DNA from: an uncultured Nitrospiraceae bacterium
Lineage (GTDB): Bacteria > Nitrospirota > Thermodesulfovibrionia > Thermodesulfovibrionales > Dissulfurispiraceae
Assembly: GCA_963705105.1 (NCBI GenBank)
Contig: CAVPIW010000014.1
Span: 224,001 to 288,000 of the forward strand
Length of the DNA: 64,000 nt
Reading direction: 5' to 3'
Part shown: positions 16,253 to 60,516 of the stretch, piece after piece
Numbering within the stretch: the stretch's first letter is position 1
Layout of the letters: each line of letters opens with the position of its first letter
Position numbers and translations under genes: made by a program
The notes under the pieces: model-generated
What the model was told of the DNA's origin: nothing
Database searches by the model: none
What the model saw: the letters and a program-made list of their open reading frames with translations, nothing else

Positions 16253-16272
<20 letters not shown>

Positions 16273-31648: not shown

Positions 31649-31663
31649 GCCAAGGAGACGGTC

Positions 31664-35256: not shown

Positions 35257-35262
35257 TCTGAT

Positions 35263-36261: not shown

Positions 36262-36324
36262 CGGGGACACGTCAGAATGACCTCGCAGCAAATATCTCAG
36301 TAGAGCAATCGAAGGGAGTGTAAC

Positions 36325-39501: not shown

Positions 39502-39534
39502 GCAGGCAGCGCTTTGATTGGATAACAGATGAGA

Positions 39535-39755: not shown

Positions 39756-39802
39756 GTCTCTGCATTTAATAATTCAACAATGACGAAGGGGGAGGTTTCA
39801 TC

Positions 39803-40528: not shown

Positions 40529-41835
40529 CCTCCCCGGAGAAGGCTCCGCGAATGGCGGTCTCGTTCCGGGAAGCCTTTCTCTGGTGGCTGAAGCTCGGCT
40601 TTATCAGTTTCGGCGGCCCGACGGGACAGATCGCCATCCTGCACAAGGAGCTGGTCGATAAGCGGAAGTGGATATCGGAAGATCACTTTCTCCAGGCATT
40701 GAATTTCTGCATGCTCCTGCCCGGACCTGAGGCCCAGCAGCTCTGCGTCTACATCGGCTGGCTGCTCCACAAGACCTGGGGCGGCATCGTGGCAGGAACA
40801 CTCTTCGTGCTCCCTTCCGTCTTCATATTGCTCGGGTTGTCCTGGCTCTATGCGGCAATGGGCACAGTGCCTGCCGTTGCCGCCCTCCTGTACGGCCTGA
40901 AACCCGCCGTCGTCGCCATCGTCGCAGAGGCTGTCCTGAGGATAGCGAAGAAGGCGCTGAAGAACTGGTTCTTCGTGGCGGTGGCGGCAGCGTCCTTCCT
41001 GTGCATTTATGTTCTTTCAGTGCCCTTTCCGGTCATCGTTTTCTCTGCTGCCGCATTGGGGTTCGTCATGAAACAGGTGGCGCCGCGCCTGTTCAGTTCG
41101 GCGGGGACGACGACCAGTGAAGACGCCGAAACCCTTATCAGCACCCTTGCGGCTCAGATGCGAGGCACGGGCTGGCGTCCCGCCCTCAGCACTTTGCTGA
41201 TGTGGGTCGCCATATGGGCGGCGCCCGTTGTTGCTGTTGCACTTTGGAAGGGAAAGAGCATCTTCACAGAAATAGGCAGACTTTTCAGTACGGCGGCTAT
41301 GGTGACCTTCGGCGGGGCCTATTCGGTCCTTGCCTACGTCGGACAGGAGGCGGTCGACAAATACGGCTGGCTCCAGCCTGAGCAGATGATGGACGCGCTC
41401 GCCCTGGCCGAGACCACGCCGGGTCCTCTCATCATGGTCAACCAATTCGTGGGCTACATTGCGGCCTATCAGAACCCCGGCGACCTGAACCCGGCCGCCG
41501 CCGGCATCATTGGGGGACTCCTGACCACGTGGGTGACCTTCGCACCGTCTTTCCTGATGATTTTCCTTCTCGCGCCTTATATAGAGGTGCTTCGCAAAAA
41601 CGCCCTGCTGTCGACGGCGCTGGCCGCGGTGACGGCGGCGGTCGTCGGCGTGGTGCTGAACCTGGGAGTATCCTTTACCCGTCATGCACTATTGCCGGAA
41701 ACGGGCGGCTTCGACTGGTACGCACTCATCGCATCTATCATCACCTTTATAGGATTGCAGTACCGCCATTGGCCGATGATTCCCGTCATTCTCGGATCGG
41801 CGGCAGCGGGATATGCATGGAAAATGCTGTTTTGA
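40507..41835 (+). CDS. chrA: Chromate efflux transporter ChrA (long chain)
   Basis: 'LGFISFGGP', 'LPGPEA', 'TFGGAY', 'ETTPGP'. Confidence 0.95.
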   Translation: MEENTEIASPEKAPRMAVSFREAFLWWLKLGFISFGGPTGQIAILHKELVDKRKWISEDHFLQALNFCMLLPGPEAQQLCVYIGWLLHKTWGGIVAGTLFVLPSVFILLGLSWLYAAMGTVPAVAALLYGLKPAVVAIVAEAVLRIAKKALKNWFFVAVAAASFLCIYVLSVPFPVIVFSAAALGFVMKQVAPRLFSSAGTTTSEDAETLISTLAAQMRGTGWRPALSTLLMWVAIWAAPVVAVALWKGKSIFTEIGRLFSTAAMVTFGGAYSVLAYVGQEAVDKYGWLQPEQMMDALALAETTPGPLIMVNQFVGYIAAYQNPGDLNPAAAGIIGGLLTTWVTFAPSFLMIFLLAPYIEVLRKNALLSTALAAVTAAVVGVVLNLGVSFTRHALLPETGGFDWYALIASIITFIGLQYRHWPMIPVILGSAAAGYAWKMLF

Positions 41836-43195: not shown

Positions 43196-44403
43196 GATCT
43201 CCTTCTCCGTTCATCATGCTCTGCAGCGCGGGGCTTTTCGCCGTCTTCAGCTCCACGATCTCGAAGAGCCCTGTGCTGCCCCTCTTCGCCTCCCATCTCG
43301 GCGCCGACCCGGCCGGTGTGGGCACCGTCGCCGCCGTTTCGGCCTTCACCGGCGTTGTTGCGAGCGTGCCGGCAGGCATGATCTCGGACAGGATCGGGCG
43401 AAAAAGGATGCTGGTCATATCGGCGGTCATCTTCGCCTCGGCCCCGTTCCTTTACCAGTTCGCCGCGACTCTCTGGCATCTCGCCCTCATCAGGTTCTAT
43501 CACGGCTTTGCAACGGCCATATTCGTTCCCGTCGCCATGGCCCTCGTCTCGGATCTCTTTCACGGGGAGAGGGGCGAGAAGATGGGGTGGTTTTCGACGT
43601 CGACGCTGCTCGGAAGGTTCATGGCGCCGATCATCGGCGGGGTCGTCATCGGTTCTCTCGCCTTCAACCCCGGCCTCGGCTACCGGGTCGTCTACCTCGT
43701 CTGCGGCGTCGCAGGGATCCTTGCTCTTCTGCTTACCCTGAAGCTGCCAGGCACAGAGACCGGCCACGCGGAATATCAATCGTGGAGAATGTCATTCAAT
43801 ATCCTGAAGGGTGTCATGTCGAACAGGGTCATCGTTCTGACGAGCGCCGTCGAGGCGTCGATCCTCTTCGCCTATGGCACTTTCGAGACCTTCCTCCCCC
43901 TCTATGCGGTCCGGAAGGGCATCAGCGCCTATGAAGTGGGCCTGTTCCTGTCGTCCCAGGTCATAACTCTCGCCCTGACAAAACCGGTCATGGGCAGGTT
44001 CTCGGACAGGCACGGGCGAAGGCCGCAGATCGTGGCGGGAGCCGTCGTCGGCGCCTGCTGCATCGGGAGTTTCTCTCTCTTCACGAGCTTTTTTCCCCTG
44101 CTGGCGCTGAGTGTCCTCTTCGGCCTGAGCCTCTCGGTCGTCACATCGGCCACGTCGGCCTTCATCGCCGATCAGAGCAGCAGGGAGAGCCACGGCTCCG
44201 CCATGGGGATGCTGGGCTCCATTATGGACATCGGGCATACCGCCGGGCCGTTCATCTCAGGCATAGTCGCGAGTCACCTGGGCTTCGCTGCGTCATTCCT
44301 CGGCGCGGCATTTGTCCTCGCAATCGCGTCCGTCATCTTCCTGCTCCTCATCGGCCTCAAAGACAACAAGGAATCGCCGCCGCAGGGGCAGGATCAACGG
44401 TGA
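43192..44403 (+). CDS. MFS transporter
   Basis: Motif A 'GMISDRIGRK' and 'GRFSDRHGRR'; 12-TM pattern. Confidence 0.95.
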   Translation: MRSPSPFIMLCSAGLFAVFSSTISKSPVLPLFASHLGADPAGVGTVAAVSAFTGVVASVPAGMISDRIGRKRMLVISAVIFASAPFLYQFAATLWHLALIRFYHGFATAIFVPVAMALVSDLFHGERGEKMGWFSTSTLLGRFMAPIIGGVVIGSLAFNPGLGYRVVYLVCGVAGILALLLTLKLPGTETGHAEYQSWRMSFNILKGVMSNRVIVLTSAVEASILFAYGTFETFLPLYAVRKGISAYEVGLFLSSQVITLALTKPVMGRFSDRHGRRPQIVAGAVVGACCIGSFSLFTSFFPLLALSVLFGLSLSVVTSATSAFIADQSSRESHGSAMGMLGSIMDIGHTAGPFISGIVASHLGFAASFLGAAFVLAIASVIFLLLIGLKDNKESPPQGQDQR

Positions 44404-44625
44404 CGCAGGTCAACCTCAACTCCATGGAGTGATACAGGCCCAAGCCTTGTTCTGATTGCTGAGAATTGAGATGTGGACCTCCTTTCCTTGCCGCAGATAC
44501 GCCCCCTCATGCCGGCGACATCAGTATAGTCCCCCTGCAAGCCCGCCTTGCAAGCATTTGAAATTCTTGAATAGGTCCAACGGAAACATGTATGATTAAG
44601 TACTTATGGAATGCGAGGTGCCACC

Positions 44626-44856
44626 GTGATAAAATTGACGAGAATAACTTTTAACCCTGAAGTAATGGGTGGAAAGCCCTGCATCAGGGGCATGCGTGTT
44701 ACGGTCGGGATGATCGTCGGCATGATCGCCGCAGGTCATTCGAGGCAAGACATTCTGAAACTCTATCCTTATTTGGAGCTCCCCGATATCGACGAGGCGC
44801 TGTCGTATGCAGCGTGGCGCTCGGAAGAAGTTGAGGTCCCCTTTCAGGCGGCGTGA
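44626..44856 (+). CDS. DUF433 antitoxin
   Basis: 'RITFNPEVMGGKPCIRGMRVTV..YPYL'. Confidence 0.92.
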   Translation: MIKLTRITFNPEVMGGKPCIRGMRVTVGMIVGMIAAGHSRQDILKLYPYLELPDIDEALSYAAWRSEEVEVPFQAA

Positions 44857-45215
44857 AACTCCTGATTGATATGAACCTTTCGCCCGAATGGGTCGAGGCA
44901 CTTGAGACTGAAGGTGTTCACTCCGTTCACTGGTCGACAATCGGGTCTTCTTCGGCGTCTGACAAAGAGCTCATGGTGTGGGCCAAAAGCAACGGCCATA
45001 TCGTAGTGACCCATGACCTCGATTTTGGAGCAATCCTCGCTGCGACGAATGCCGATGCCCCAAGTGTAGTGCAATTGCGCTTTCAGGATTTGGCGCCTTC
45101 GCATGCAAGATGGCTTGTCGTCAAAGTGTTGCGTGATTATGGACGAGAGCTTGAGCAGGGGGCTCTGATAAGCCTCGACGAAGAGAAGGCGCGAGTCAGG
45201 ATCCTGCCCCTTTGA
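44853..45215 (+). CDS. DUF5615 PIN-like (VapC45-type) toxin
   Basis: 'MKLLIDMNLS', 'SDKE', 'VTHDLDFG'; coupled to DUF433. Confidence 0.92.
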   Translation: MKLLIDMNLSPEWVEALETEGVHSVHWSTIGSSSASDKELMVWAKSNGHIVVTHDLDFGAILAATNADAPSVVQLRFQDLAPSHARWLVVKVLRDYGRELEQGALISLDEEKARVRILPL

Positions 45216-45634
45216 CAACTAACACCTGTCTGTTATTGAACACTTCATTCATTATGCACTGAATAGTCCTTTGTCAATTCGCTCCGTTTACCTGCAAGCC
45301 CGCGAAATTGTTAACCCGATAAATCAAATAACATCGCTGCCGACAACCTGATTTCGGAAGGAGGATGTTCCTCCGAGAGTCCGCGGCAAATGATTTTCCC
45401 AGAGTGATGCGGCGTCCTACCGGAAAGAATTTTCCGTAAGGACTGACGACCCGTCTTGGGTCTTTGTCAATTCGTTCCGTTCACCTGTAAACACGCAAAT
45501 TCAAGCGCTTGCAATTATTCTGAATTGCTGGTAGAAATATATCAGTTTCACATTACTGCGAGCAGGTCAAGAAGTAGAGGTATCAGAGTGACATGCGCTG
45601 ACGGAGCGGTGAAGTTGGAGGAGAGGTTTTTGGC

Positions 45635-48600
45635 ATGACGACAAGCCTGAGCGGTTCTGGCATACGGGATAATTACCTGCACGGAAAGGCAGGCGACTTC
45701 CTCCGCGACGCCATTGTTTCAGATGCTAAGCTCTCCTTTGTGTCCGCCTATTTCACGATCCACGCCTTTGATGCTTTGCGCGACATCCTTGAGATTGCCG
45801 GTAAGCTGCGGTTTCTTTTCGGTGAGCCCCGCTTTGTCCGCAGCCTTGACCGTGAGAACAAGCAGTCACGGCAATACCGCCTCACCGAGCAAGGTTTGTC
45901 GTTGGCCAATCAGCTCTCTCAGCGCCGATTGGCGAGGGAGTGTGCTGACTGGATCAGGCACAAGGTTGAAATCCGCTCGGTAACACGATCCGGTTTCCTT
46001 CACGGAAAACTCTATCATATCCAAGATGGTAAACTTGCTCATGCCTTGGTGGGCAGTTCGAACTTTACCGTGCCCGGTCTTGGATTGCTGCAACAAGGCA
46101 ATAACATCGAGCTTAATCTTGTTGTCGCCGATGACCGCGACCGTGTTGATCTCCTGTCCTGGTTCGACAGCCTGTGGGACGACAACGCGCTTGTTGAAGA
46201 TGTCAAAGACACAGTTCTTAAAGAACTCGCCCGACTGTACGCGAATCAATCACCTCAGTTCATCTACTACCTGACGCTCTTTCATATCTTCAGGGACTTC
46301 CTCGAAGAGACACGAGACGTTGATGACGCCCTGCGTCGCACTGCGCTCCCGGATACCCGCACTTGGCAGTCGCTCTTCGCGTTCCAGAAAGACGGCGCGA
46401 AAGCTGCCATCAACAAGATGTTGACCGTCAACGGGTGCATTCTTGCCGACAGCGTTGGTCTCGGCAAGACCTTCACCGCCCTTGCCGTGATCAAGTACTT
46501 CGAGTTGCGCAACGAACGCGTCCTTGTTCTTTGTCCGAAGAAGCTGCGGCGGAACTGGACGGTATACCGCTCCAACAGCACGCTCAATCCATTTCTCGAA
46601 GACCGATTTCGTTACGACGTCTTGTCGCATACTGATCTCTCACGAGACCGTGGGGACGTTGACGGCATTGATCTTGCGACGCTGAACTGGGGCAATTATG
46701 ACCTTATCGTGATCGATGAATCCCACAACTTCCGGAACAACGCTTTGGCTCAGAACCGGCCCGGCGGTTCACCGCGGCGAAGCCGTTATCAGCGTTTGAT
46801 GGAGGACATCATCACCTCTGGAGTGCGCACCAAGGTTCTGCTGCTTTCGGCTACTCCGGTGAACAACCAGCTCGCCGACCTCCGCAACCAGATTTCCTTT
46901 ATTGCCGGTGGAGATGTCGCGCGAGACGATAGGCCCGACGCAGCTTTTGATGCACCGCTGGGGATAGCCTCAGTACGCGAGACGACTCGCAAAGCGCAGA
47001 TGCACTTTACGAACTGGTCCAAAAAGCCAGCCGCTGAGCGCAAGACCAGGGACCTACTGTCTGCCCTCGGCGGTGATTTTTTCAAGCTTCTCGATGGGTT
47101 AAGTATCGCCCGCTCTCGCCGGCAAATCGTGAGCTATTACGCCGACGAGATGAAACAGTTGGGCGGCTTCCCTGATCGGCTTGCACCGCAGGCGATAAGC
47201 CCCCAGATTGATTTGCAGCAACGCTATCTCTCCTTTGAACAGCTTGACCATGAGATCAGCGACCTTCATCTTGCACTCTATCATCCTACCAGGTTTCTCC
47301 GTGACGAACTTCCAGGCTCAATACGCGCTGCCTATTTGGATACGATCCTGGGCGCCTTCACTCAGGAAGGCCGTGAGCGAATCCTCATTGCAATGATGAA
47401 GGTGAATTTTCTCAAGCGCCTCGAAAGCTCAGTCGACTCATTCCGCCTTACCATTCGCCGCACTATCGAGAAAATCGACCGCCTGGAAGAGCGTATTCTT
47501 GCCTTCGAGAAGCATCTCGACGACAATCCTGAAGTCGATTACGACGTACTCACGCCCGACCAGTTCGAGGATCCGGACTTCGAGGGCGAAGACTTCACTA
47601 TTGGCGGCAAGAGGCGCATCCATCTCGGCCATCTGAAGCTCCCAGAGTGGCTCAAGGCGGTGCGCCATGACCGGACGCAACTCCAGTTCATGCTTCAAAA
47701 GACTGAATCGGTCAAACCCCACCGCGATGGGAAACTTGATGAACTCCGCCGCCTTATTGACCGCAAAGTCCAGAATCCAACGACTGACCTGGACGGTCGC
47801 CCTAACAGGAAAGTGCTCGTCTTCACGGCCTTTGCCGATACCGCTCGCTATCTGCACGAGCAGCTTGAACCGTGGGCTCGGGCGCACCTCAATATCCACG
47901 TGGCGCGTGTCGTCGGTGAAGGGGACAATCGCACTTCCCTTGGCAGTTTGGATTACGACGACATCCTCACAAACTTCTCTCCGCGATCAAAGCGTCGTGC
48001 TGAACAGCCGCGGTTTCCCCAAACAGAGGAGATCGATCTCCTCATTGCCACTGACTGCATTTCCGAGGGGCAGAACCTTCAGGACTGTGACCTCCTCATC
48101 AACTACGACATCCACTGGAACCCGGTCCGCATCATTCAGCGCTTCGGCCGAATTGACCGTATCGGTTCGCGAAACCGGGCGGTGCAGCTCGTCAACTTCT
48201 GGCCCGTGGCTGACCTTGACAAATATCTCAACGTAAAGCACCGCGTCGAGGCACGGATGGCGCTCGTGGATCTGGCGGCGACGCAGACCGATAACCTCCT
48301 CGATCCGGGACAGCTCGAAGACCTTATCAAGGAAGACCTGCTTTTCCGTGACCGACAACTGAAACGTCTTAAGAACGAGATCCTCGACCTCGAAGACCTC
48401 GATGACTCAGTGTCCCTTACCGACTTTTCCCTTGACGAGTTCAGACTCGATCTCCTGCAGTTCATCGAATCGCGCAGGTCAGATCTGGAGGAAGCGGGCC
48501 TCGGCATTTACGCCGTCGTGCCACCAAAGGCGAACCTTCCTGCTTGCCGTCCGGGTGCCCTTTTCTGCGTTCGTCATCTCGGCAAAACAGATAGACCCTC

Positions 48601-49030
48601 CACAGTGTCCCAAGACGCCGAAGCAGGTGAACCGCGACCATCGGACTCGGCCAATATCAATCCTCTGGCGCCTCATTATCTGGTCTATGTTCATGATGAT
48701 GGAACGGTCCGCTTCACCTTCACCCAACCGAAGGAGTCATTGTTGCTGCTGCGTGAACTTGCTGCAGGTGAGCCCTCAGCATTTGAGAAGCTTTGCGACA
48801 TTTTCGACGCGGCTACAAATGACGGCGCAGATATGAGTCATTACGATAACCTCATTCAAAAGGCCCTCTCATCCATAGAGCGTACCTTTCAACGCAAGGC
48901 CGCTGCGGGTCTGCTCGCAGGACGGGGTGGTGTGCTACCGAGAGCATCAGAAACACCCTTTGCCGATCAGAACCAATTCGAGCTCATCACATGGCTCGTC
49001 ATCCTGGAACCGCAACAGGGGATCAAATAA
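45635..49030 (+). CDS. PLD-nuclease-SNF2-type helicase fusion
   Basis: PLD 'HGKLY..VGSSNFT'; 'LADSVGLGKT', 'DESHN', 'SATP', 'SEGQNLQ', 'QRFGRIDRIG'. Confidence 0.92.
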   Translation: MTTSLSGSGIRDNYLHGKAGDFLRDAIVSDAKLSFVSAYFTIHAFDALRDILEIAGKLRFLFGEPRFVRSLDRENKQSRQYRLTEQGLSLANQLSQRRLARECADWIRHKVEIRSVTRSGFLHGKLYHIQDGKLAHALVGSSNFTVPGLGLLQQGNNIELNLVVADDRDRVDLLSWFDSLWDDNALVEDVKDTVLKELARLYANQSPQFIYYLTLFHIFRDFLEETRDVDDALRRTALPDTRTWQSLFAFQKDGAKAAINKMLTVNGCILADSVGLGKTFTALAVIKYFELRNERVLVLCPKKLRRNWTVYRSNSTLNPFLEDRFRYDVLSHTDLSRDRGDVDGIDLATLNWGNYDLIVIDESHNFRNNALAQNRPGGSPRRSRYQRLMEDIITSGVRTKVLLLSATPVNNQLADLRNQISFIAGGDVARDDRPDAAFDAPLGIASVRETTRKAQMHFTNWSKKPAAERKTRDLLSALGGDFFKLLDGLSIARSRRQIVSYYADEMKQLGGFPDRLAPQAISPQIDLQQRYLSFEQLDHEISDLHLALYHPTRFLRDELPGSIRAAYLDTILGAFTQEGRERILIAMMKVNFLKRLESSVDSFRLTIRRTIEKIDRLEERILAFEKHLDDNPEVDYDVLTPDQFEDPDFEGEDFTIGGKRRIHLGHLKLPEWLKAVRHDRTQLQFMLQKTESVKPHRDGKLDELRRLIDRKVQNPTTDLDGRPNRKVLVFTAFADTARYLHEQLEPWARAHLNIHVARVVGEGDNRTSLGSLDYDDILTNFSPRSKRRAEQPRFPQTEEIDLLIATDCISEGQNLQDCDLLINYDIHWNPVRIIQRFGRIDRIGSRNRAVQLVNFWPVADLDKYLNVKHRVEARMALVDLAATQTDNLLDPGQLEDLIKEDLLFRDRQLKRLKNEILDLEDLDDSVSLTDFSLDEFRLDLLQFIESRRSDLEEAGLGIYAVVPPKANLPACRPGALFCVRHLGKTDRPSTVSQDAEAGEPRPSDSANINPLAPHYLVYVHDDGTVRFTFTQPKESLLLLRELAAGEPSAFEKLCDIFDAATNDGADMSHYDNLIQKALSSIERTFQRKAAAGLLAGRGGVLPRASETPFADQNQFELITWLVILEPQQGIK

Positions 49031-52000
49031 TGGATGCACAGAGGAGTAGACAGCTCAAAGAAGGCATTCAGACAACTCTTGCCGACTTCACGAGAAACCC
49101 TCTTCCTCTTGCGGCACGAAAGCTTTTCACCGTGCTTGGTTATACCAGCGAGCGCGATGAGCGGACTTTGAGGATCACCGATGTCGATGAATTCTTTGCC
49201 TGGCTCGACAGCGGTCACAGACTCTCCATTCTCTCGGATAAAGATAAGAAAGCACTCATCTCTGCATGTGAGGATCTAACCTTTCTCTTACAACTCACTG
49301 ATGAAGAAATAGGAGCAATCATCGGGGCTGCGCAGAGCGGACTTTTCGGTTCAGACACAACCGTAGACGGTTCGCGCATTGAGAGTTATCTCGTCTTTGC
49401 AGTCGAACTCTCGTCCAATGCACCGCGCTCCCGCACAGAACTTGCCCGGATTGTCCGCTTGATCAACAAACCCTTGCCCATGCCTGCACTTATCCTTTTC
49501 AGGCATGGCGATACGCTGACGCTCGGGGTCATAAACCGTCGTCTCCACAAGCGGGCTCAAGACAGGGATGTCCTTGAAAAGGTCACTCTCATCAAAGACG
49601 TTGTCTTTGCCAAACCCCATCGTGCACACATTGAGATTCTTTTCGATCTTTCTTTTTCCAGTCTCTATGAGCAGTATCAGCCGTCCAATTTCGTGGCGCT
49701 TCATACAGCATGGCAAAAGACACTTGATACGTCGGAGCTGAATAAGAAGTTCTATCGCGAACTCTCCAACTGGTACTTCTGGGCTATCAAGAATGTGGAA
49801 TTCCCGGACGACGCCGAGAAAAACAAAGATGTCCGGAACGCAACCAGCGTGATTCGCCTGATCACCCGGCTTATCTTCATCTGGTTCATCAAAGAGAAGG
49901 GGTTAATCCCCGAGGATCTCTTCAATGAAACAAGGCTGAAGACCATACTCAACTTCAACGACAAGAATCAGAGCACCTATTACAAGGCAATCCTTCAGAA
50001 CCTGTTCTTTGCCACGCTCAATACCGAGATGAACAAAGACAAGCCCGGCAGCCGCAAGTTTAGAGGGAAAAGGAAAGAGGGAAGAGATCAGCATTACATG
50101 ATACACAATGTATTCAGGTACGAAGACTATTTTGTGAACCCCCATGATGCTCTGAAAGAATACTTCGAGGACATTCCGTTTCTGAACGGCGGTCTGTTTG
50201 AATGCCTTGACAAGATGATCACAACCAACGGCAGAGAAAAGGTTGTTCGCATAGATGGCTTCTCCGACCATCCGAAAAACGTTCTCAAAGTATCTGATGA
50301 CCTTTTTTTCTCCCCTGAACAGAGCATTGACCTAAATGAGATATACGGCACCAAAAATAAGGCATACAAAGTCAGGGGATTGATCCACATCCTTGACAGT
50401 TATAAGTTCACCATTGATGAAAACACACCAATCGAGGAAGAAATAGCCCTTGATCCTGAGCTTCTCGGTAAGGTCTTTGAAAACCTACTTGCGAGTTATA
50501 ACCCGGAAACGCAGACGACGGCTCGCAAACAGACCGGCTCATACTATACGCCCAGAGAGATCGTCAATTACATGGTCGACGAATCCCTCATCTCATACCT
50601 CAAAACTAGACTTCAGAACTCTGTCGTATCGCTGGATGTGGACAAGCAGGGGGATGATAACGGAACGTCATGTCTCCGCCATCTCTTCTCTTACACGGAG
50701 GAACCCCACCATTTCAGTCAGCAACAGGTTGATGCGCTCATTGACACTATCGACAATATGAAAATCCTTGATCCGGCTTGCGGTTCTGGCGCCTTCCCAA
50801 TGGGCATCCTGCACAGGTTGGTGCATGTCCTGGGAAAACTTGATCCGAACAACGAGAAGTGGCGTACGAAACAGCGGCAAAAGGCCATCAAGGAAACCGA
50901 GGAAGCATATAGGATCGGCAATCAGGAGGAGCGTCAGAAAAGGCTTCTGGATATTGATGATGCCTTCGAAAACAATGCCTCAGACTACGGACGGAAACTC
51001 TACCTAATCGAAAACTGCATATTTGGCGTGGACATTCAGCCTATTGCTGTCCAAATTGCCAAGCTTAGGTTTTTTATATCACTCATGGCAGACCAGAAGA
51101 CTGATTCCGATAGGGAGAATCTCGGCGTCAGACCGTTGCCAAACCTTGAAACAAAATTCGTCGCTGCGAACACACTCATCGGCGTAATACGTCCGGGCCA
51201 GCAGTTCCTCCGAAACCTCTTGATTGAAGCCAAAGAAGGGGAACTTCGCCGCGTTCGGGAGCGCCACTTTCTTGCACGAACGCCTGCAACAAAGGCCAAG
51301 TTCCGTGACCAGGACTCAAGACTGCGCGTGGAGATAGCAAAACTCCTCAAGGATGATGGATGGGATACTGTAACTGCCCACAAAATATCCGCTTGGAATC
51401 CATATGACCAGAATGCATCTGCTGATTTCTTTGACCCTGAGTGGATGTTTGGAGAGACTAATGGTTTTGATGTGGTGATAGGCAATCCGCCATATGTAAG
51501 TGCTTTGGATTTCAAACGAATATATGGCACCACTGTTCGCGAACAACTTAATGCACTTTATCACTCTGCAACTGGCACCTACGACCTATTCGTATTATTT
51601 GTCGAGCAAGGATTGAAGCTTTGCAGAAATCTGGGCCATTTAGCTTACATTACTCCTAACAAGTACTTATCAGCAAAGTATGCTGTTGGACTTCGCAGTT
51701 GGTTGATTGCCAACGCCAGCCTCTTGAGGATTCTTGATGTTTCTCCTATTCGCGTTTTCAAAGAGGCTGCGGTATATCCAGTTGTGTCCATCTTTCGCAA
51801 GGAGCCACAAATTGCAGGATCCGTTCTTGTTTCGTTGCCGGCTACTCGCAATCTTGAGTGTTTTGATGCTAACTACTATGAGGAGACCTCTGTGCCGGCC
51901 GAGTGGCTCGAACTGTTACCAGAAAATATCTGGGGATTTCTGCTATCGAGAAACGTCAGACTTCTCCCAGTTGTCATGCGGTCTGCTGCGTCTCTTGCAT

Positions 52001-52241
52001 CCCTTGGAGGGGTCAATGCGACCTCGACGGCGAGCGAGGCGGATGAGTTTGGTGCCTGGATCACATCAATGCCCGGAACAAAGAGCATGAAATTGATCAA
52101 TACAGGCACGATTGAAAAATACATAACTCTCTGGGGAATAACAGAGATGACACATAAAGGCAAGAAATTCCTAACGCCATACTTACCCTTGGCCAAGGCC
52201 AAGGTTATGGGGTCGGTTGTCAATAGTGGACACCAAACCTC

Positions 52242-53105
52242 TCATGCTGCCTGTGCATTCATATGGTATGCTTTTTCAAAAGCAGCAGGTGAAAGATACC
52301 CAAGTCTTGCCTGCCGCCGCTGCCGATTGTAGAACACCTCGATATACTCGGTGATCTCCCGAATCGCCTCCTGCCTCGTCTTATACCGCCTGTGATGCAC
52401 AAGTTCACTTTTCAACACTCCCCAGAAACTCTCCATCGGCGCGTTGTCATAGCAGTTGCCCGTCCCGCTCATTGAGGCATTCATCTTCAAGTGTTTCAGC
52501 AGCTTCCTGTAGTCATGCGCACAATACTGACTGCCCCGGTCAGAGTGGTGTATCAGCTCTGCAGGAGGACGTTTCGCCCAGATCGCTCGTAACAACGATT
52601 CCCTGACAAGGTTCTGTGTTATCCTCTCCCCCATCGCATACCCCACAATCTCTCCCGCAAAAAGGTCCTTATGCGCTGCAAGATATAGCCACCCTTCCTC
52701 CGTCGGGATATACGTGATGTCGCTGACCCACACGCGGCCCGGTGCCGTCGCCTCAAAGTCTTGCTGTAGCAGATTGTCCGCCACAGGTAACGTATGCCGC
52801 GAGTCCGTTGTGACCTTGAACCGCCGCTTTTGTTTGCACCGTATCCCCAATTTCCTGCGTATCCTCTTGATTCGGCTCACTCCTGCTTTCACCCCGTGGG
52901 CTGCCAAATCCTTCTGCAGACGCTCCGGACCATACGTCCCTCGTGTGCGCTCGTGTGCCGCCTGTATCTCGACCTCCAACCGCGCCTCCTCTTTGGCATG
53001 GGCGGACGCGGGCCGACTGACCCAGGCAAAATAACCGCTCGCCGATACATCAAAAACACGGCTCATAAACGGGATCGGATACTCGAGTCGCAATTCATTC
53101 ATCAT
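52242..53105 (-). CDS. IS3 transposase OrfB (DDE)
   Basis: 'WVSDITY', 'HSDRGSQY', 'DNAPMESF'. Confidence 0.95.
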   Translation of the reverse strand: MMNELRLEYPIPFMSRVFDVSASGYFAWVSRPASAHAKEEARLEVEIQAAHERTRGTYGPERLQKDLAAHGVKAGVSRIKRIRRKLGIRCKQKRRFKVTTDSRHTLPVADNLLQQDFEATAPGRVWVSDITYIPTEEGWLYLAAHKDLFAGEIVGYAMGERITQNLVRESLLRAIWAKRPPAELIHHSDRGSQYCAHDYRKLLKHLKMNASMSGTGNCYDNAPMESFWGVLKSELVHHRRYKTRQEAIREITEYIEVFYNRQRRQARLGYLSPAAFEKAYHMNAQAA

Positions 53106-53416
53106 CGCGTACCTGGCTGCGACTCCCTCGCAAAGTACGCGGCCGCTTTTTTTAACAGGTCCCGCTCCATCCTCGTCTCTATAAGCTCTTTCTTGACTCT
53201 TGCCAGTTCCATCTCTATCTCGGTGAGGGGCCGATAGTTCTTGCCGATGTCCTTGAGTTTGCCGGCCTTATACGCCTTGACCCAGTTGCCCAACGTAGAT
53301 GGCGGCAACGACAACCGATGGGCCACTTCAGGTAATGACATGCCTGTCTCCACAATCATCTTCACTGCTTCCTCTCGAAATTCCTTCGTGTACCGTCCTT
53401 GCGGAATCCCTTTCAT
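53102..53416 (-). CDS. IS3 transposase OrfA
   Basis: 'YTKEFREEAV' HTH; 'LKKAAAYFA' with an A7G slippery site near 53146-53153. Confidence 0.92.
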   Translation of the reverse strand: MKGIPQGRYTKEFREEAVKMIVETGMSLPEVAHRLSLPPSTLGNWVKAYKAGKLKDIGKNYRPLTEIEMELARVKKELIETRMERDLLKKAAAYFARESQPGTR

Positions 53417-53940
53417 TCTGACACCTCCGTCTTTCTTAGTTTACCGACTTTGGTGTCCACTTTTTCCATCCTACCTCAGTTAATAGTCGCAGAATTTCTA
53501 TGTACAAAGCACCCAAGGTGATATTTGCGAAAATGGCAAAACGATGCGAAGCCGCCATTGATGATGCAGGTGAGTTCGCGTCACTAAACACCAACTGCTT
53601 CTACAATCCAAGAAATGGCATTTCAATAAAGTACATTGCCGGCATCTGCAACTCCCGTGCGTTTATGTTCCTTTATGACCTCTTCTTCAGTGCACTTAGA
53701 ATGAGTGGCGGTTACTACCAGTTCCAATCGCCCCAACTACGTGTTGTTCCTATACCTCGGGCAGATACATGTCAAATGGCGGCTGTCGAAGCTTTGGTTG
53801 AGAAGATTCTTGTAATTAAGAGAGAAGCCCCTCATGCTGACACATCAAATGTCGAACGGCAAATTGACGACATGGTTTACTCCCTCTATGGCCTCACACC
53901 AGAGGAGGCTGAAGCCGTCGAGTGCATAGAGTAAGCAAGA

Positions 53941-55479
53941 ATGCCAACGCTCGAAGGATTAATCTCTCGCGGATACTTCCCCAAGGAATTGCCGCCTGCT
54001 TTCAATAGCTCCCGTTTGCGTGGGGTCTTGTTACAAAATGGGTCAGACGTACCACGATTATTTCAAGACCACCGTGGTGCTGGAAAGATGATGACGCACA
54101 ACCTCGCGCAAAGTGGTTCACTCCGAAGAAAACTCGGGATACCTAATCCAGTCCACTTCTGCAAGCTGGCAGCCTTTGTAGTCGATAACTGGCAAGATTT
54201 GTATGCAAGTGCATCACGCTCTCATCTATCATTGACAACCCCTGTAGACGGATATTTGCGTAGAGCCATTGAACGACAATATGATCTCACAGAGCGTCCC
54301 GTCCGCAGAGCACAGCTACGGAGCACTTCGCGCTACATTTTACAGGCAGACATAAGTCGTTTCTACCCTTCGATTTACACTCATAGCATACCGTGGGCAT
54401 TGCACACCAAAGCAATTGCGAAGAGGAATCGCAGTGACCAGTTACTTGGAAACCAGCTTGATCGACTTGTCAGGCATGCACAAGATGACCAGACGATGGG
54501 AATTCCCATTGGTCCCGACACATCTCTGCTCATAGCGGAAATTCTTTTGGCAGCTGTTGACGAGGCTTTACGTGAAAGAGGGATTACTCGTGGATTCAGA
54601 TATATTGACGACTACGAGATTGGGTTCCAGACTTTGTCAGATGCCGAAGCGGCTTTATCACACTTCCAAGAAGTGCTCAATGAATACGAGCTTGCTTTAA
54701 ACCCAAACAAAACGAGAATACTTAAATTGCCCCTACCGGCGGAGCCACTCGCCATTTCGGAATTGCGAACCTTCCTATTTAGACCTTCTATCCCTGGGCA
54801 GCGATCAGATCTCTTGCGATATTTCGACAGAGCGTTTTACCTGGCCAACGATAATCCTGAAGAACACATACTGAAGTATGCCATAGCAAGACTGAGTGGC
54901 ATAGACATCCATTCGTCCAACTGGAGCCTCGTTGAAAACCTTCTTCTTCAATGCTTGGTTGCAGAATCGGGAACTATGCCCCTTGCTCAGAATCAGTTTC
55001 TTCGTTATAGGGATCTGGGATTTGCCCTTGATAGAGACAGAATTGGTGAAGCTCTGGGCAGTGCGATAGCCCAGCATAGTTCGTTGGGACACGGTAGTGA
55101 GGTGGCATGGGGTTTGTGGTGCCATCTCGTCTTAGGAATCAGAGTCAGTTCTGCCAGTTGCAGTGCCGCATCTTTCTTGAATGACTCCATTGCAGCCCTG
55201 CTCCTGTTGGATGCACACAACAAAGGTCTTGTTTCCTCAGCTATTGAGTTCCGCAATTTACCATCGGTCATGACCACAGATGAACTCTATGGTGAGCACT
55301 GGCTCCTATCGTACGAGGCTAACGTTAAAGGGTGGCTTCCATCAGAAGGCACCTCGGATCATGTATCAGATGATCGGTGCTTTGCCCTTCTCAAGAACAG
55401 CGGCGTCTATTTCTACGATGACACAGTGAGTGACCATATAGGGTATGAAGCACCTGGGGGATGGGCCGAGAGATACTGA
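53941..55479 (+). CDS. Reverse transcriptase of the UG/Abi (defence-associated) class with a helical C-terminal domain
   Basis: 'GYFPKELPP', 'RKLGIPNP', 'DISRFYPSIYTHSIPWALH', 'GIPIGPDTS', 'RYIDD', 'LNPNKT'. Confidence 0.92.
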   Translation: MPTLEGLISRGYFPKELPPAFNSSRLRGVLLQNGSDVPRLFQDHRGAGKMMTHNLAQSGSLRRKLGIPNPVHFCKLAAFVVDNWQDLYASASRSHLSLTTPVDGYLRRAIERQYDLTERPVRRAQLRSTSRYILQADISRFYPSIYTHSIPWALHTKAIAKRNRSDQLLGNQLDRLVRHAQDDQTMGIPIGPDTSLLIAEILLAAVDEALRERGITRGFRYIDDYEIGFQTLSDAEAALSHFQEVLNEYELALNPNKTRILKLPLPAEPLAISELRTFLFRPSIPGQRSDLLRYFDRAFYLANDNPEEHILKYAIARLSGIDIHSSNWSLVENLLLQCLVAESGTMPLAQNQFLRYRDLGFALDRDRIGEALGSAIAQHSSLGHGSEVAWGLWCHLVLGIRVSSASCSAASFLNDSIAALLLLDAHNKGLVSSAIEFRNLPSVMTTDELYGEHWLLSYEANVKGWLPSEGTSDHVSDDRCFALLKNSGVYFYDDTVSDHIGYEAPGGWAERY

Positions 55480-55656
55480 TGCCTCATATCAAAGAAAATA
55501 TTTGTGAGGCAACAGAGAACCCGGTTGCTGAGATTACGAAGAGCAGAATGCTGCGTTATTATCTTGGCATTTGGATAATAACATAACGATGATGCAATCG
55601 GCTATGCTTATCAATGAGTTTTGTGGTTGTTTATTATCTCCTAAACGGAGGCGGGA

Positions 55657-57165
55657 TTGGCGATAAAGAGAACAGACAGGGCGGAGGAGAGCCGGAACCC
55701 TGAGATAGTACGGGCGCTGTGCGCTCTTGACGAAAGCTTGTATTTCGAGTCGAAGAGGGTCTCCGGCAAAATGGTGCACAAGGCTCTCGAGACCATCGTC
55801 GCTTTTGCGAATACCGAGGGTGGTGCACTTGTCCTCGGCATGGAGGACTTAAAGAAAACAAAAGGCAACGACCGATTGTACGGCATTGCGGAGAATCCTG
55901 AAGCCCTCGATGAACTTCGCCAAAAAGCGTCGCACCACATCACGCCTTCTCTCGAAGATCTCAAATGGCGGCCTATCCCCTGCACTCTTCGTGATGGATC
56001 AAAGGGCTCAATCGTCTTGATTGAAGTTACGAGAAGCAAGAAGGTCCACTCCATCGTCGAAAATGGGACGTGGAAGAGACTGGATCGCGGCAATAGAGAA
56101 ATGACGGCGCGAGAGATCAACGAGCTCTGTTTTGCCCGCGGCGTTATCAGTGCCGAGACAGAGACAGTTTCCGTTCCCTTTGAACTGCTCGAAACAGGGT
56201 ACTGGAAGACATACTGCGAGACGCGGAAAATTGCCACGGGGGATATCAAAGACAGGATGTTCCGTATCGGTCTCGCCCGTAAAGTTGAGGGCATGCTGAT
56301 GCCGACGAGGGCAGCCGTGCTGCTCTTTGCCGACGACCCGTCCGGTCTCATGGCGTCTAAGACCTCGGTGCGTGTGTTCCACTATTCAGGAGCGCGTATT
56401 GAGCATGAGCCGATCCCCAATCTCTTAAAGAAGCCGAAGACGTGCTTGGGTCCTCTCATCAAGCAGATTGAAGACGCCTATGAGTATGTGATCAATGAAA
56501 TAGCGGGTGGCTTGAGACTCTCTGCATCCGGATTCGAGACCGTGCATTGCTATCCCACTCGCGTCATAAAGGAGGCGATCACCAACGCGGTCATCCATCG
56601 TGATTATCACATCAACCGCGATATTCACGTCAGGATATTTGACAACAGAATCGAGGTGGAGAGCCCTGGCCTCTTCCCCGGTGACATTAGGCCGGAGACC
56701 GTGGCAACAGCGGGTTCGTTGAACCGCAATCCGCTAATCGTCAATCATTTGAGGGAATTTCCGGTCCCGCCTAACATTGACGCGGGTGAAGGGGTTCGTA
56801 TGATGTTCTCAACGATGCGTGCGGTCGGCCTCTATCCGCCCTTTTACTTCACGAGGCCGTTTCTTCAAACCGATGGAGTGATGGTTGTGCTTCTCAATGA
56901 AGAGCGCCCTGCTGTTTGGGAACAGGTCAGTGAATGGGTTGACCGCAAAGGCTCTATCACGAACAGCGCCCTTTGCCAGATAGCGGACATTGATACGCTA
57001 AAGGCCTCAAAGATGCTGAAACGATGGGTTGAAAAAGACATGCTTGTGCCCGATATGACCAAGGGCAAACGAGGTGCACGCTACAGAAAACCAGGACAGG
57101 ATCTCGCGGTAAGATCATTCTTTTCATTATCCGGGCTCTCGGATAATAACCCGGAGGACAGCTAA
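55657..57165 (+). CDS. Schlafen/AlbA_2 domain + HATPase-like (RecG-C) + wHTH protein
   Basis: 'ESLYFESK', 'AFANTEGGALVLG', 'EAITNAVIHRDY', 'IEVESPG', 'RNPLI'; GGAGG before TTG. Confidence 0.88.
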   Translation: MAIKRTDRAEESRNPEIVRALCALDESLYFESKRVSGKMVHKALETIVAFANTEGGALVLGMEDLKKTKGNDRLYGIAENPEALDELRQKASHHITPSLEDLKWRPIPCTLRDGSKGSIVLIEVTRSKKVHSIVENGTWKRLDRGNREMTAREINELCFARGVISAETETVSVPFELLETGYWKTYCETRKIATGDIKDRMFRIGLARKVEGMLMPTRAAVLLFADDPSGLMASKTSVRVFHYSGARIEHEPIPNLLKKPKTCLGPLIKQIEDAYEYVINEIAGGLRLSASGFETVHCYPTRVIKEAITNAVIHRDYHINRDIHVRIFDNRIEVESPGLFPGDIRPETVATAGSLNRNPLIVNHLREFPVPPNIDAGEGVRMMFSTMRAVGLYPPFYFTRPFLQTDGVMVVLLNEERPAVWEQVSEWVDRKGSITNSALCQIADIDTLKASKMLKRWVEKDMLVPDMTKGKRGARYRKPGQDLAVRSFFSLSGLSDNNPEDS

Positions 57166-57470
57166 TATCCACTGCATATCAATTAGATCTTGCGTATTTT
57201 ATTATCCGATTCGAGAGCGTTGGACAGATTCGCACGACCAGCATCAGGGAAGGGGGCTACTCTAACTGCGATGATTCCCTCTTGGAGAACTAAACCGCTG
57301 CGCGGTGGTGATGAGTTGTCAGCGTAGTGAAACGAGATAGAGCTTTTTCTTCGTTGTAGAGGCTTTCAGTTCGGTCCCTCTTGTTGAACAGTCCCCATCG
57401 TCTTACAATCTTCTTTTGGTGTACCTGACGGCATGAGCTGTCGGATATTGATACCAGAGGAGGCAGTTGC

Positions 57471-58313
57471 ATGAGCACATTGAGAGAGCAGATGGTGGCG
57501 GATCTTCAGTTGAGAGGCATTACCCCCAGGACGCAGAAGAAGTATCTCCGGGAAGTCAGCAACCTCGCGAAGTATTACAACAAGTCACCCCAGGACCTGG
57601 GCGAACAGGAAGTGAAAGAGTACCTGGTGCATATGCTGAAAGACAGAGGCATCTCCGTGGGAACGTACCGAACCTACGCAGCGGGGATCAAGTTCCTGTA
57701 TACGACGACCCTGGACCGGCCCGAGGTCGTGGAGAAGATCAAGTATCCCAAAAGCACACACAAGCTCCCCGAAGTGCTTGACCTCTCGGAGATCAAGGCC
57801 CTGCTGTCCGTCATGGACAATCTCAAGCACCGGGCACTGCTGACGATGACCTATTCAGCAGGACTCAGGGCCAGCGAGGTCGCCCGCCTGAGAGTAAGCG
57901 ACGTCGACAGCAAGAGAATGATGGTGCGGGTGCAGCAGGGCAAAGGCAGAAAGGACCGCTACAGCATCCTGTCCAAAACAGCCCTTGAGTGCCTCAGAGA
58001 GTATTACAGGCAGTATCGCCCCTCGCAGTGGCTGTTTGAAGGACAGAGCGAGGATACCCATATCTGCTACACGTCCATACGGAATATCTTTCGGGAGGCC
58101 AAGGAGCGGGCCGGCATCACAAAACCGGCAACCCCTCATACGCTGAGGCACTCCTTTGCGACTCACCTGATTGAAGCAGGGACAAGCCTTCATCATGTCC
58201 AGCTGCTCATGGGCCATAGGTCCCCGAGCACGACGACCGTCTATCTGCATGTCAGCCGGATGAATCTGGCACAAGTCACCAGCCCCCTGGACACCATGCC
58301 GGAAGAACTGTAG
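57471..58313 (+). CDS. Tyrosine recombinase/integrase (IS91-associated type)
   Basis: 'YSAGLRASE', 'GKGRKDR', 'HTLRHSFATH', 'LMGH', 'TTVY'. Confidence 0.95.
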   Translation: MSTLREQMVADLQLRGITPRTQKKYLREVSNLAKYYNKSPQDLGEQEVKEYLVHMLKDRGISVGTYRTYAAGIKFLYTTTLDRPEVVEKIKYPKSTHKLPEVLDLSEIKALLSVMDNLKHRALLTMTYSAGLRASEVARLRVSDVDSKRMMVRVQQGKGRKDRYSILSKTALECLREYYRQYRPSQWLFEGQSEDTHICYTSIRNIFREAKERAGITKPATPHTLRHSFATHLIEAGTSLHHVQLLMGHRSPSTTTVYLHVSRMNLAQVTSPLDTMPEEL

Positions 58314-58335
58314 CAGTTCACCTCCCCACTGCCGG

Positions 58336-59526
58336 ATGCGGCCCTCTCGCGGCGTCGAGGTGGCGGATATCTTCCGCCGGCACGGCCCGGAGTACAGGAA
58401 AGCCCACTGCTTGCCTCTGCATCACCTGCGGGTCATGCGTGCCGTGGAGATCTGCAGGACGGCTGCTTTGGGCGGGCATACAGACAGGTGCGAGGACTGC
58501 GGGCACATCGAGATCTCCTACAACTCCTGCCGGAACCGCCACTGCCCCAAGTGCCAGACTCTGCAAAAGGAGCGGTGGATCGAGGCGCGAGGACAGGACC
58601 TCCTGCCTGTTGAGTACTTCCACGTCGTCTTCACCATTCCCACAGAGCTCAATCCCCTGGTCATCATGAATCAGAGGGTCCTGTATAATCTGCTGTTCCG
58701 GTCGGTTTCCGAGACCCTCGGGGAATTGTGCCAAAATCCCCGGCATCTCGGCGCACAGATCGGCTTCATCGGTGTTCTGCACACCTGGGGGCAGAACCTG
58801 CTGGATCACCCCCACATCCACTGCGTTGTGCCCGGCGGTGGGCTGTCCCCGGACAGGAGCCGCTGGGTGTCATGCCGCAGGGGTTTCTTCATCCCCGTCC
58901 GGGTGATGTCGGAGCTCTTCAGGGGCAAGTTTCTCGACTACCTTAAGGACAGGTTTCACGCGGGCGATCTCATCTTCCCCGGCGGAATTGCTCATCTGGG
59001 ACATCCCGGGGCCTTCTCGGCACTCTGCGGCCGGCTCTACAACAAGAAATGGGTCGTCTACTGTAAAGCACCCTTCGCCGGCCCCGAGGGTGTCCTCCAG
59101 TATCTGGGCAGGTATACTCACAGAATCGCAATCAGCAACAACCGTATCCTGAACGTGCAGGACGGCGCCGTATCCTTCCGCTGGCGGGACTACGCCGACG
59201 GGGACAAACAGAAGATTATGACGCTCACGGCTGAGGAGTTCATCAGGCGCTTCCTCCTGCATGTCCTTCCGCCACGCTTTGTCAGGATACGCCACGTCGG
59301 TCTGCTGGCAAACAGAAACGGGAAAGATCACATTGCCGTCTGCCGGCAATTGCTCGGCAGTGACACAACGGTCACCAAAGAAAAAGATACGAAAGAGACC
59401 TGGCAGGAACTGTTACGCAGGATCTGCGGCATCGATGTTACCACCTGTCCTGTCTGCAAGAAGGGCAAGATGGTCATGGTGGAGCTATTGCCTCCCTGCC
59501 GGTGCAACAGCCCCCCGGATCATTAG
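58336..59526 (+). CDS. IS91-family rolling-circle transposase
   Basis: Zn finger 'YNSCRNRHCPKC', HUH 'HPHIH', 'YLGRY'. Confidence 0.95.
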   Translation: MRPSRGVEVADIFRRHGPEYRKAHCLPLHHLRVMRAVEICRTAALGGHTDRCEDCGHIEISYNSCRNRHCPKCQTLQKERWIEARGQDLLPVEYFHVVFTIPTELNPLVIMNQRVLYNLLFRSVSETLGELCQNPRHLGAQIGFIGVLHTWGQNLLDHPHIHCVVPGGGLSPDRSRWVSCRRGFFIPVRVMSELFRGKFLDYLKDRFHAGDLIFPGGIAHLGHPGAFSALCGRLYNKKWVVYCKAPFAGPEGVLQYLGRYTHRIAISNNRILNVQDGAVSFRWRDYADGDKQKIMTLTAEEFIRRFLLHVLPPRFVRIRHVGLLANRNGKDHIAVCRQLLGSDTTVTKEKDTKETWQELLRRICGIDVTTCPVCKKGKMVMVELLPPCRCNSPPDH

Positions 59527-60085
59527 GCAATGAGCACCGCTGAGATGACAACAACCGTATCGCCGGCACTCTGCGAAAACAGCCCTCTGTTTCGCCGCAC
59601 CCTCTTATTGCCTGAAATTGCGCCTCTGCATGGCCTGGCCACAGTCGAGACGTACCGAACTGCTTCTTGCGCTACGCTGAATGGTCTCATTCGAGCAGAA
59701 ACTGCCGCCGTATCCCCAAAACGACCTCCCTTCTCGTCGTAGCAACTCCAGACAATCCGTATCGAATCTCCATAATCGGCGCAGCGGCATCGTTCTTCAC
59801 GCGTTATTCAGCAACTGCGCTGCAGAATGACGCTTACTCGTATTCCGCAGAATCACAATGAGATGCGGCCATACTGACTTCTGTGAGAAGTTATTCCTGA
59901 CAACGGAGAGGAGCACAGCCCTTCGAGTCTACTGGCGACTGAACATCTCCGTTGTGCTGAAGGGACGGAGGGGGTCGGCGGGACGGAAACGGTAGATGAT
60001 CATCCCGATGCGCGGACGGTCGACTTCCACAGGGCGGTAACCATACTCCTGCACCTGTGCGGCGCCTTTCGACAGTGAGGATCAA

Positions 60086-60298
60086 GAGAACCGCGGCTCC
60101 GTTATGGACATCGGGCATACCACCGGCCCATTCGTCTCAGGCATGGTTGCAGGTTATCTGGGCTTCGGGGCGTCCTTTCTCGGAACATCAATTATCCTCT
60201 CAGTCGCGTCCGTCATCTTTCTCCTCGTCATCGGCATCAAAGACAACAAGGAATCGCCGCCGCAGGCCCGGGAACTTTCCGGAAAACAGCATTCATAA
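60086..60298 (+). pseudogene. Second, diverged copy of the 3' end of the MFS gene
   Basis: 60095-60266 aligns with 44215-44386 (MDIGHT.GPF..KDNKESPPQ). Confidence 0.9.
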
Positions 60299-60516
60299 TT
60301 CACGAACAGATGATAGGACTCAGAGAGCCGCGTCGCGCCTTGTCTTCCCCCGGTGAACGCGAACATGTGATATGCCTCATTTTCGGGTATAATGTGACTA
60401 TAGATAAAAGAGAAGGATGTCCCGACAAGGCCACAGCAGCCGGAAGGGTCGGAGGGACGGCAGGTCTCGCCGGGCGGATTTGACGATCTCGCACCAATGA
60501 AAGGAGGAGGTCTGAA

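Follow-up and report, generated by a model that had tools for sequence, protein, structure and literature searches.

A predicted DRT6 reverse transcriptase at the 3′ end of an operon for a PLD-helicase and an Eco57I-like methylase, probably an autonomous abortive-infection gene

We analysed a 64,000-nucleotide stretch of DNA (the window) from an uncultured Nitrospiraceae bacterium (assembly GCA_963705105.1, contig CAVPIW010000014.1, positions 224,001 to 288,000), in which a reverse transcriptase (RT) gene lies directly behind genes for a PLD-domain helicase and an Eco57I-like DNA methylase. An earlier note, made from the sequence alone, had described four co-oriented genes at this locus, the fourth encoding an AlbA_2 ATPase, and had proposed that they form a dedicated defence system coupled to restriction–modification (RM). 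Coordinates and Pfam domains (Table 1) bear out the four genes and their junctions. The helicase stop and the methylase start overlap in a TAATG at 49028-49032, 6 nt separate the methylase stop (53934) from the RT ATG (53941), and 177 nt lie between the RT stop (55479) and the TTG start of the AlbA_2 gene (55657). The four genes do not adjoin without a break, as an element of the IS3 family of insertion sequences interrupts the methylase. Taken as a whole, the locus is a stacked defence island of an ordinary kind, in which the methylase was broken recently.

Table 1 Features of the locus (window coordinates).
Feature	Position	Strand	Remarks
Inserted island, ~16 kb	44344..60386	.	Ends approximate; lower GC, flanking repeat, empty-site contig
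DUF433 + DUF5615/PIN-like gene pair	44611..45215	+	Pfam
PLD-domain SNF2-type helicase, 1,131 aa	45635..49030	+	Frame intact; Pfam PLDc_2, SNF2-rel, Helicase_C
Eco57I-like (type IIG-like) N6-adenine methylase, 5′ part	49030..52207	+	DPACGSG and NPPY motifs; broken by IS3
IS3-family element, 1,271 bp	52208..53478	-	orfA 53102-53416, orfB 52242-53105
Methylase 3′ part (TaqI_C specificity region)	53479..53934	+	In frame with 5′ part
Predicted DRT6 (UG12) reverse transcriptase, 512 aa	53941..55479	+	RT domain, alpha-helical repeat domain, flexible tail
Tyr114, rival primer candidate	54280..54282	+	Aligned to DRT4 priming Tyr125; profile alignment anchored on invariant R108/R119
His148 and Asp174, putative RNase pair	54382..54462	+	Equivalents of DRT4 HD pair H160/D192 by alignment
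YIDD polymerase motif	54601..54612	+	D223 kept in 208/208, D224 in 206/208 homologues
Terminal Tyr512, candidate priming residue	55474..55476	+	On flexible tail
AlbA_2 (Schlafen) + HATPase_c_4 protein	55657..57165	+	TTG start; Pfam
Tyrosine recombinase + IS91-family transposase	57471..59526	+	Family profile matches

The helicase matches the PADLOC model HKD+Snf2 (E 6e-121), and the methylase carries the Pfam domains Eco57I/N6_Mtase and TaqI_C. By these domains the pair reads as a PLD-helicase/type IIG-like module. DISARM class 1 (DrmD + DrmMI) likewise has an SNF2 helicase adjoining an adenine methylase; this assignment was rejected, as DrmD scored 146 bits against a cut-off of 610 and neither the AlbA nor the RT gene belongs to DrmABC. 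A literature search at the level of listings found no paper that gives this pair of helicase and methylase a name. The IS3 element lies within the specificity region of the methylase, whose flanking parts sum to one 1,209-residue frame, and it is bordered by a 4-bp target duplication (GTTA at 52204-52207 and 53479-53482). Elsewhere the genome holds four more full-length copies that are at least 99.8% identical and one at 97%; because of these near-identical copies we take the insertion to be recent. Two further helicase-methylase operons occur in the genome (C13:1171-11154 and C10:139027-147036), with other genes in the place of the RT.

The RT carries the Pfam domain RVT_1. A PADLOC search, which the earlier note had proposed, ranked Drt6 first (577.8 bits, E 5.5e-174), followed by two Drt4-labelled models (573.5 and 533.2 bits); a third Drt4 model, PDLC03752, scored 274.9 and Drt3b 122. 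The NCBIfam Drt4 equivalog reached 245.9 bits, below its cut-off of 450. Because the PADLOC label alone is close between Drt6 and Drt4, we separated the two by fold. An AlphaFold2 model built from a 78-sequence alignment (pLDDT 92), in which the helical C-terminal half begins at about residue 270, was matched best by Foldseek to the cryo-electron microscopy structure of a DRT6 hexamer (9WY8; TM 0.91, root-mean-square deviation 2.1), with lesser matches to DRT4 (TM 0.79) and AbiK (0.65-0.73). Profile and predicted fold identify the RT as DRT6/UG12, a class 1 member of the UG/Abi group. The earlier note was right to place it among the anti-phage, protein-primed UG/Abi enzymes, and the class can now be narrowed to this type. 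The motifs given there, YIDD (221-224), YTHSIPWA, GIPIGP and a terminal GGWAERY, were found on reading the protein, and the model confirms the helical C-terminus. All three catalytic aspartates (D137, D223 and D224) are present. A retron or group II intron RT was rejected from sub-cut-off profile scores (group II model 53.6 against 300 bits, retron St85 30.5 against 235), and no VTG motif was seen when the RT was inspected by eye. An Rfam search for noncoding RNA gave no match beyond one chance hit.

The type was described as UG12 by Mestre et al. 2022 (PMC9226505), and its structure is PDB 9WY8. Reconstituted in E. coli K-12, UG12 gives protection from T5 and ZL-19 that depends on the RT site (PMC9226505). 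DRT6 synthesises DNA without a template and stays covalently joined to the product; T5 ORF55 activates it, and in sbcB cells it is toxic (PMC12783706). Two reviews class it as a single-gene or DRT4-like system with an unresolved mechanism (PMC13213688, PMC13314766). The window RT is 32% identical to the solved enzyme over about 495 residues and shares its architecture of RT domain and alpha-helical repeats. It differs in its tail, which is long and acidic in the solved enzyme and has 19 residues ending in Tyr in the window RT, in having Tyr at the DRT4 priming position, and in adjoining a methylase directly.

The RNase site of DRT4 is H160/D192 (bioRxiv 10.64898/2026.10.21.760695). The aligned His148 and Asp174 of the window RT are each invariant in 208/208 full-length homologues, a set made up of 114 of the 119 other listed matches (at least 495 residues) and 94 complete RTs from the loci described below. 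By sequence and by analogy with DRT4, a single chain of the RT probably combines the polymerase with the effector; since the His/Asp pair is kept, a partner effector is probably not needed.

These features fit a mechanism modelled on published DRT4 and DRT6 enzymes. What was computed here is the identity of the RT, its intact sites and its variable gene context; all activities are taken from the papers on those enzymes. The RT would form a hexamer and make random single-stranded DNA covalently primed on itself, as reported for another DRT6. Host 3′ exonucleases would keep this product short until a phage single-stranded DNA-binding protein (SSB) shields it and turns on killing, both steps being reported for DRT4 and DRT6. 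Killing would probably proceed through the RT's own RNase site at His148/Asp174, an activity reported for DRT4 only, so that RNase-driven abortive infection would be the end result of self-primed DNA stabilised by phage SSB. The RM operon would supply the RT with transcription and mobility, giving layered but mechanistically separate defences, and the pair may have been co-inherited for long in the nearest subclade. We consider it probable that the RT is autonomous DRT6 abortive-infection cargo that occupies the last place of the helicase-methylase operon on a 16-kb island.

The present state of the operon is a separate matter. The earlier note had argued that the RT, with no room for its own promoter, is co-transcribed with the RM genes. 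The gap is indeed too short for one, and co-transcription is plausible in the intact ancestor. For the present genome the argument falls short: promoter scans were at chance level (7 sites against 5.0 ± 2.3 expected in one), and the IS3 element now lies between the start of the operon and the RT, whose expression it may reduce. It is quite possible, if short of probable, that the operon is being silenced in this strain, with IS3 destroying methylase specificity and acting as a polar block on the RT. The element lies antisense and ends the methylase frame early, the 6-nt spacing suggests coupling of the RT to a frame that has lost its start, no promoter rose above chance, and a copy of the element sits in a gene behind the C13 helicase-methylase operon. 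Against silencing, the RT and helicase frames are intact, and a promoter-like site at 53675-53702 (9/12, chance level) could serve the RT. Silencing concerns the present state only and is compatible with an autonomous DRT6. The end of the element (window 52208-52235, minus strand) contains a perfect TTGACA that faces outward, into the methylase and away from the RT.

The earlier note had singled out the terminal Tyr as a candidate priming residue, and the tails of the family uphold it. Beyond the last conserved motif the 208 homologues have a variable tail with a median of 25 residues. Tyr is last or penultimate in 126/208 of them, in 51/97 clusters at 70% identity and in 12/12 homologues at 56% identity or more, compared with 16/560 other open reading frames (ORFs). 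Ser, Thr or Tyr occupies one of these two places in 72/97 clusters against 128/560 other ORFs. Where the tail has no Tyr, Ser/Thr peaks at the penultimate place (20/46 clusters, against 2-12 at the other last-eight places); what the tail end calls for would then be a hydroxyl group and not an aromatic side chain. The clusters are related to each other, and for this reason no p-value is attached. Priming at or near the C-terminus has precedents: DRT3b primes on Y666 of a tail ending at 667 (PMC13174585) and DRT9 on Y496/Y498 (PMC12483538). DRT4, on the other hand, primes on an internal residue, Y125 (PMC12783706, bioRxiv 10.64898/2026.10.27.754916), to which Tyr114 of the window RT aligns. From these sequence patterns we lean, without great confidence, towards Tyr512 as the primer; Tyr114 is a somewhat unlikely candidate. 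The Tyr114 position is Tyr in 37/208 homologues (18%) and is not Tyr in the solved DRT6, an enzyme that still makes covalent product. In the literature searched we found no statement of the DRT6 priming residue; the structure paper of Wang et al. 2025 (BBRC), outside the reach of that search, may name it. The family-wide bias towards Tyr or a penultimate Ser/Thr predicts a priming mode for DRT6 that does without DRT4 Tyr125.

Several observations weigh against priming on the tail. In the model the tail is unresolved (residues 508-512 at pLDDT below 50), and 34/208 homologues have no Ser, Thr or Tyr in the last two places, only 3 of them having the loop Tyr. Of the 8 closest homologues listed, 7 have Tyr at the Tyr114 position. 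Moreover, the RT tail takes the place of the C-terminal subdomain with which DRT4 binds the phage SSB gp44 (10.64898/2026.10.21.760695). It is possible, though we would not favour it, that the conserved tail end instead serves to bind phage SSB or a host exonuclease, with priming on Tyr114 or another internal residue. A few tails are indeed acidic with a Phe end (DDDLPF, EDGDF, DDDPF), like the DDIPF tip of SSBs, and the conservation of Tyr114 among close homologues fits as well. Phe or Trp, however, ends 10% of the 97 clusters against 36% for Tyr, and neither the penultimate Ser/Thr of Tyr-less tails nor the rarity of Tyr at position 114 across the family, the solved DRT6 included, is what a binding tip with internal priming would lead one to expect. 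A further idea, that the loop Tyr replaces an absent tail hydroxyl, was unsupported (loop Tyr in 3/34 against 41/174). The acidic, Phe-ended minority tails are found at L063, L160, L024, L035, L047 and L068, where they may mimic the SSB tip in recruiting host exonuclease or binding SSB partners.

The proposal of a dedicated RM-coupled system was examined against the gene context of the wider family. Homologue loci were taken from the top 80 of the 564 matches in genomes and the top 80 of at least 575 in metagenomes, which gave 123 clusters at 90% identity; exclusion of 23 with less than 700 nt of upstream DNA left 100 loci. These were tallied by hand from gene maps and from Pfam searches of the first upstream ORF (100/100), the second (77) and selected others. 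A co-oriented methylase-type RM operon lies within about three genes upstream in 16/100 loci (12/65 loci with at least 5 kb upstream; 10/66 clusters at 70%). The direct upstream neighbour is an RM-operon gene in 9/100 loci. The earlier note had suggested counting homologues directly behind Eco57I-like genes, of which there is 1/100 (L136). The partners vary among type I, IIG, III and SNF2/DUF1156 operons, and three more loci follow type IV genes. As a control we used Shedu, a stand-alone defence nuclease. It occurs in 18/401 genomes of the phylum, with a methylase-type RM operon upstream in 5/18 and directly upstream in 4/18 (all ORFs compared by local BLAST, and 53 of the 87 listed neighbours by Pfam). 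By this measure the link of DRT6 to RM is no stronger than that of this other single-gene defence.

The helicase gives a similar picture from its own side. Close homologues of it occur in 12/316 other genomes of the order, and a single-protein search for DRT6 in the same 316 genomes gave no match. None of the 11 fetched loci with close helicase homologues has an RT. What lies on either side of the methylase changes from locus to locus; at the six loci with readable DNA behind it, the place after the methylase is filled by Bro-N (2), DUF3800, a PDC-M41A gene, an unknown gene and a housekeeping gene. With RM linkage at 16/100 loci and 5/18 for Shedu, a helicase that does without the RT at 11/11 other loci and a DRT6 that protects alone, dedicated coupling is not borne out. 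The earlier note had itself held that homologues standing mostly alone or in random neighbourhoods would speak against it. This is what is seen across the family, and it does not extend to the nearest subclade, where both members with context are RM-linked.

That subclade supplies most of what weighs against an autonomous RT. When 401 genomes of the phylum were searched with a profile, six other RT matches were obtained, the closest of which (genome G323, locus L225, identical to P0008) is 64% identical to the window RT. G323 repeats the arrangement of the window, with a helicase, 2 nt, an intact 1,187-residue Eco57I-like methylase, 3 nt and the RT, so that the window is not the only case of RM linkage. 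The methylases of the window and G323 group together among nine methylases (support 0.90, both branches long), and the methylase-RT junction may, by this comparison, be old and inherited. In addition, 16/100 is a lower bound, as RM fragments upstream of L010, L014, L016 and L028 were uncounted. The 100-locus tally covers RTs 37-58% identical to that of the window and is silent on the nearest subclade, and the Shedu control has few loci, all of a single phylum. A co-inherited RM-DRT6 subclade is possible; two cases fit hitch-hiking as well as a guard role.

Together with L225 and P0002-P0010, the window RT falls in one clade (support 0.999, FastTree) marked by the tail P-x-G-W-x-x-x-Y. Its members are 63-67% identical to the window RT, and G323/L225 is the sole relative there with readable context. 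The helicases of the window and G323 do not group together. At the sister-clade locus L081 no RM gene lies upstream. The other five phylum matches comprise L227, which duplicates L024, L229 (28% identity), between hsdS and hsdR, and three without an RM neighbour. A search for further relatives in the order of G323 found them in 1/11 genomes, namely G323. For RTs P0002-P0012, contigs shared with a methylase were limited to P0008 and P0238 (589,542 bp) among 115 matches and the best 120 of at least 7,998, a sample too small to inform. We also considered joint transfer of the RT and the specificity region of the methylase; this was rejected, since that region is 32-34% identical between the two RT-linked loci and other methylases reach 66-73%.

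The earlier note had suggested a backup or guard like PrrC, and a rival reading gives such a role to the P-x-G-W-x-x-x-Y subclade: its RT would be held or sensed by the methylase complex and would act once restriction is blocked, the part that PrrC and Ronin play for type I RM. Both members with context lie 3-6 nt behind one methylase family in different families of one phylum, in a subclade supported at 0.999 and with methylases that pair in their tree. Such RM guards do exist (10.1101/2023.04.06.535777). That two loci form the sample and that L081 has no RM gene upstream both tell against the idea. In the same source RonA homologues are reported to be always linked to hsdM/hsdS, whereas most DRT6 genes have no such link. 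The near-constant association with a single RM type that a guard would show is not seen in the family (16/100 loci, four RM types), although it is 2/2 in the nearest subclade. What triggers DRT6 is, by report, a DNA-binding protein of the phage (PMC12783706), and fold comparison shows no extra domain in the RT that could read a methylase. The RT frame is also intact despite the loss of the methylase C-terminus, which a caged toxin might punish; the insertion, however, is recent and may silence the RT. We regard a guard role as improbable: possible in principle, and unsupported. Slightly more doubtful is the combined proposal that the subclade primes on its very last Tyr and was recruited as a standing backup of the PLD-helicase/Eco57I-like methylase, its RNase firing when restriction is disabled. 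We found no report of an RT acting as an RM guard, and no paper on DRT6 within RM operons, in the literature searched. If true, a guard RT would link RM surveillance to DNA-synthesis immunity. As an intact natural helicase-methylase-DRT6 operon, G323 makes the question testable without the broken copy of the window.

The remaining suggestion of the earlier note is that the RT supplies the PLD nuclease-helicase with DNA, which could be its substrate, its guide or its activator. We hold this to be very improbable: it draws on gene order here and in G323 (L136 and L056 being looser cases), and against it stand the 11/11 other helicase loci without an RT, the random sequence of the DRT4 product and template-independent synthesis by DRT6 (PMC12783706), and the RT's own putative effector site.

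With an autonomous DRT6 as the preferred reading, the window RT can be set beside other systems. It shares with DRT4 (UG15, PDB 9VDO) the fold (TM 0.79), the YIDD motif, the RNase His/Asp pair and Tyr114 in the place of the priming Tyr125. Unlike a DRT4 it is only 24% identical and scores 246 against 450 bits on NCBIfam Drt4, and the Tyr125 position, reported invariant in DRT4, is Tyr in 37/208 of its family. DRT3b (class 1) and DRT9 offer the precedent for Tyr512 in priming on C-terminal tyrosines; they differ in being systems with a noncoding RNA (DRT3b also with a second RT), and the window RT scores 122 bits on Drt3b against 578 on Drt6. PrrC and Ronin, effectors held by type I subunits, resemble it as abortive-infection genes tightly placed in an RM operon. 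The DRT6 family differs from them in being linked in a minority of loci, with several RM types and a reported RM-independent trigger.

Within the family, other DRT6 genes also occur close to RM genes. DRT6-like RTs lie in or at the end of RM operons at L019, L024, L066, L229, L089, L090 and L092, mostly with gaps of less than 20 nt, in the type I orders R-S-RT-x-M, M-S-RT-R and M-S-R-RT and also between an SNF2/NOV_C helicase and a DUF1156 gene. A subclade with a D/N-V-S-G tail (L005, L008, L012, L095, L098 and L101) follows HsdR, a fused HsdM/S and then a gene of 243-266 residues (for example L012:7970-8707) that overlaps the RT start, contains an RxxxxH motif, presumably HEPN-like, and has no Pfam or PADLOC match. 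Other members of this subclade lack an intact RM operon or lie behind McrBC. Here too a DRT6 cassette linked to RM is a candidate, and one sampled at more loci than that of the window. The four families of the window recur in another order at L056:962-10954 (helicase 26%, Eco57I 29%, AlbA-ATPase 60% and DRT6 49% identical), where the RT belongs to a different subclade; by sequence, the same parts came together there independently. The closest RT relatives on viral contigs reach 46% identity and those on plasmids 35%. Of nine plasmid loci the one that was analysed (L224:591-5677) has an RT with Drt6 as its best profile, 30% identical, 15 nt behind a TOPRIM and helicase pair that we take to be Gabija-like.

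The island itself contains a gene pair, which we take to be toxin-antitoxin-like, at its left end, followed by the helicase, methylase, IS3, DRT6 and AlbA-ATPase genes and an integrase with an IS91-like transposase. Its GC content is 0.47-0.55 over 45-58 kb, compared with 0.53-0.63 in the rest of the window. A 172-bp repeat of the 3′ end of a major facilitator superfamily gene (84% identity; 44215-44386 and 60095-60266) bounds it, and an empty-site contig (run X5) joins 44343 to 60387, skipping 16,043 bp; this is a single contig with a 114-nt side. Among the contigs aligned to the window none bridged the IS3 element and the RT had little coverage, neither of which counts as evidence. A tRNA search of the window found none. 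No AlbA_2 gene lies behind the RT of G323, where an uncharacterised DUF8370/DUF8371 protein is encoded 12 nt downstream (L225:10549-12015). The AlbA_2/HATPase_c_4 gene is separate cargo.

A similar pair of tyrosine recombinase and IS91-like transposase genes occurs at L076, upstream of the RT and on the opposite strand. Outside the island, the regions 1494-16272 and 28920-41835 of the window encode a 3,005-residue immunoglobulin-repeat protein ahead of secretin and ATPase genes of the type II secretion/pilus type, together with an RND efflux set and ChrB/chromate transporter genes.

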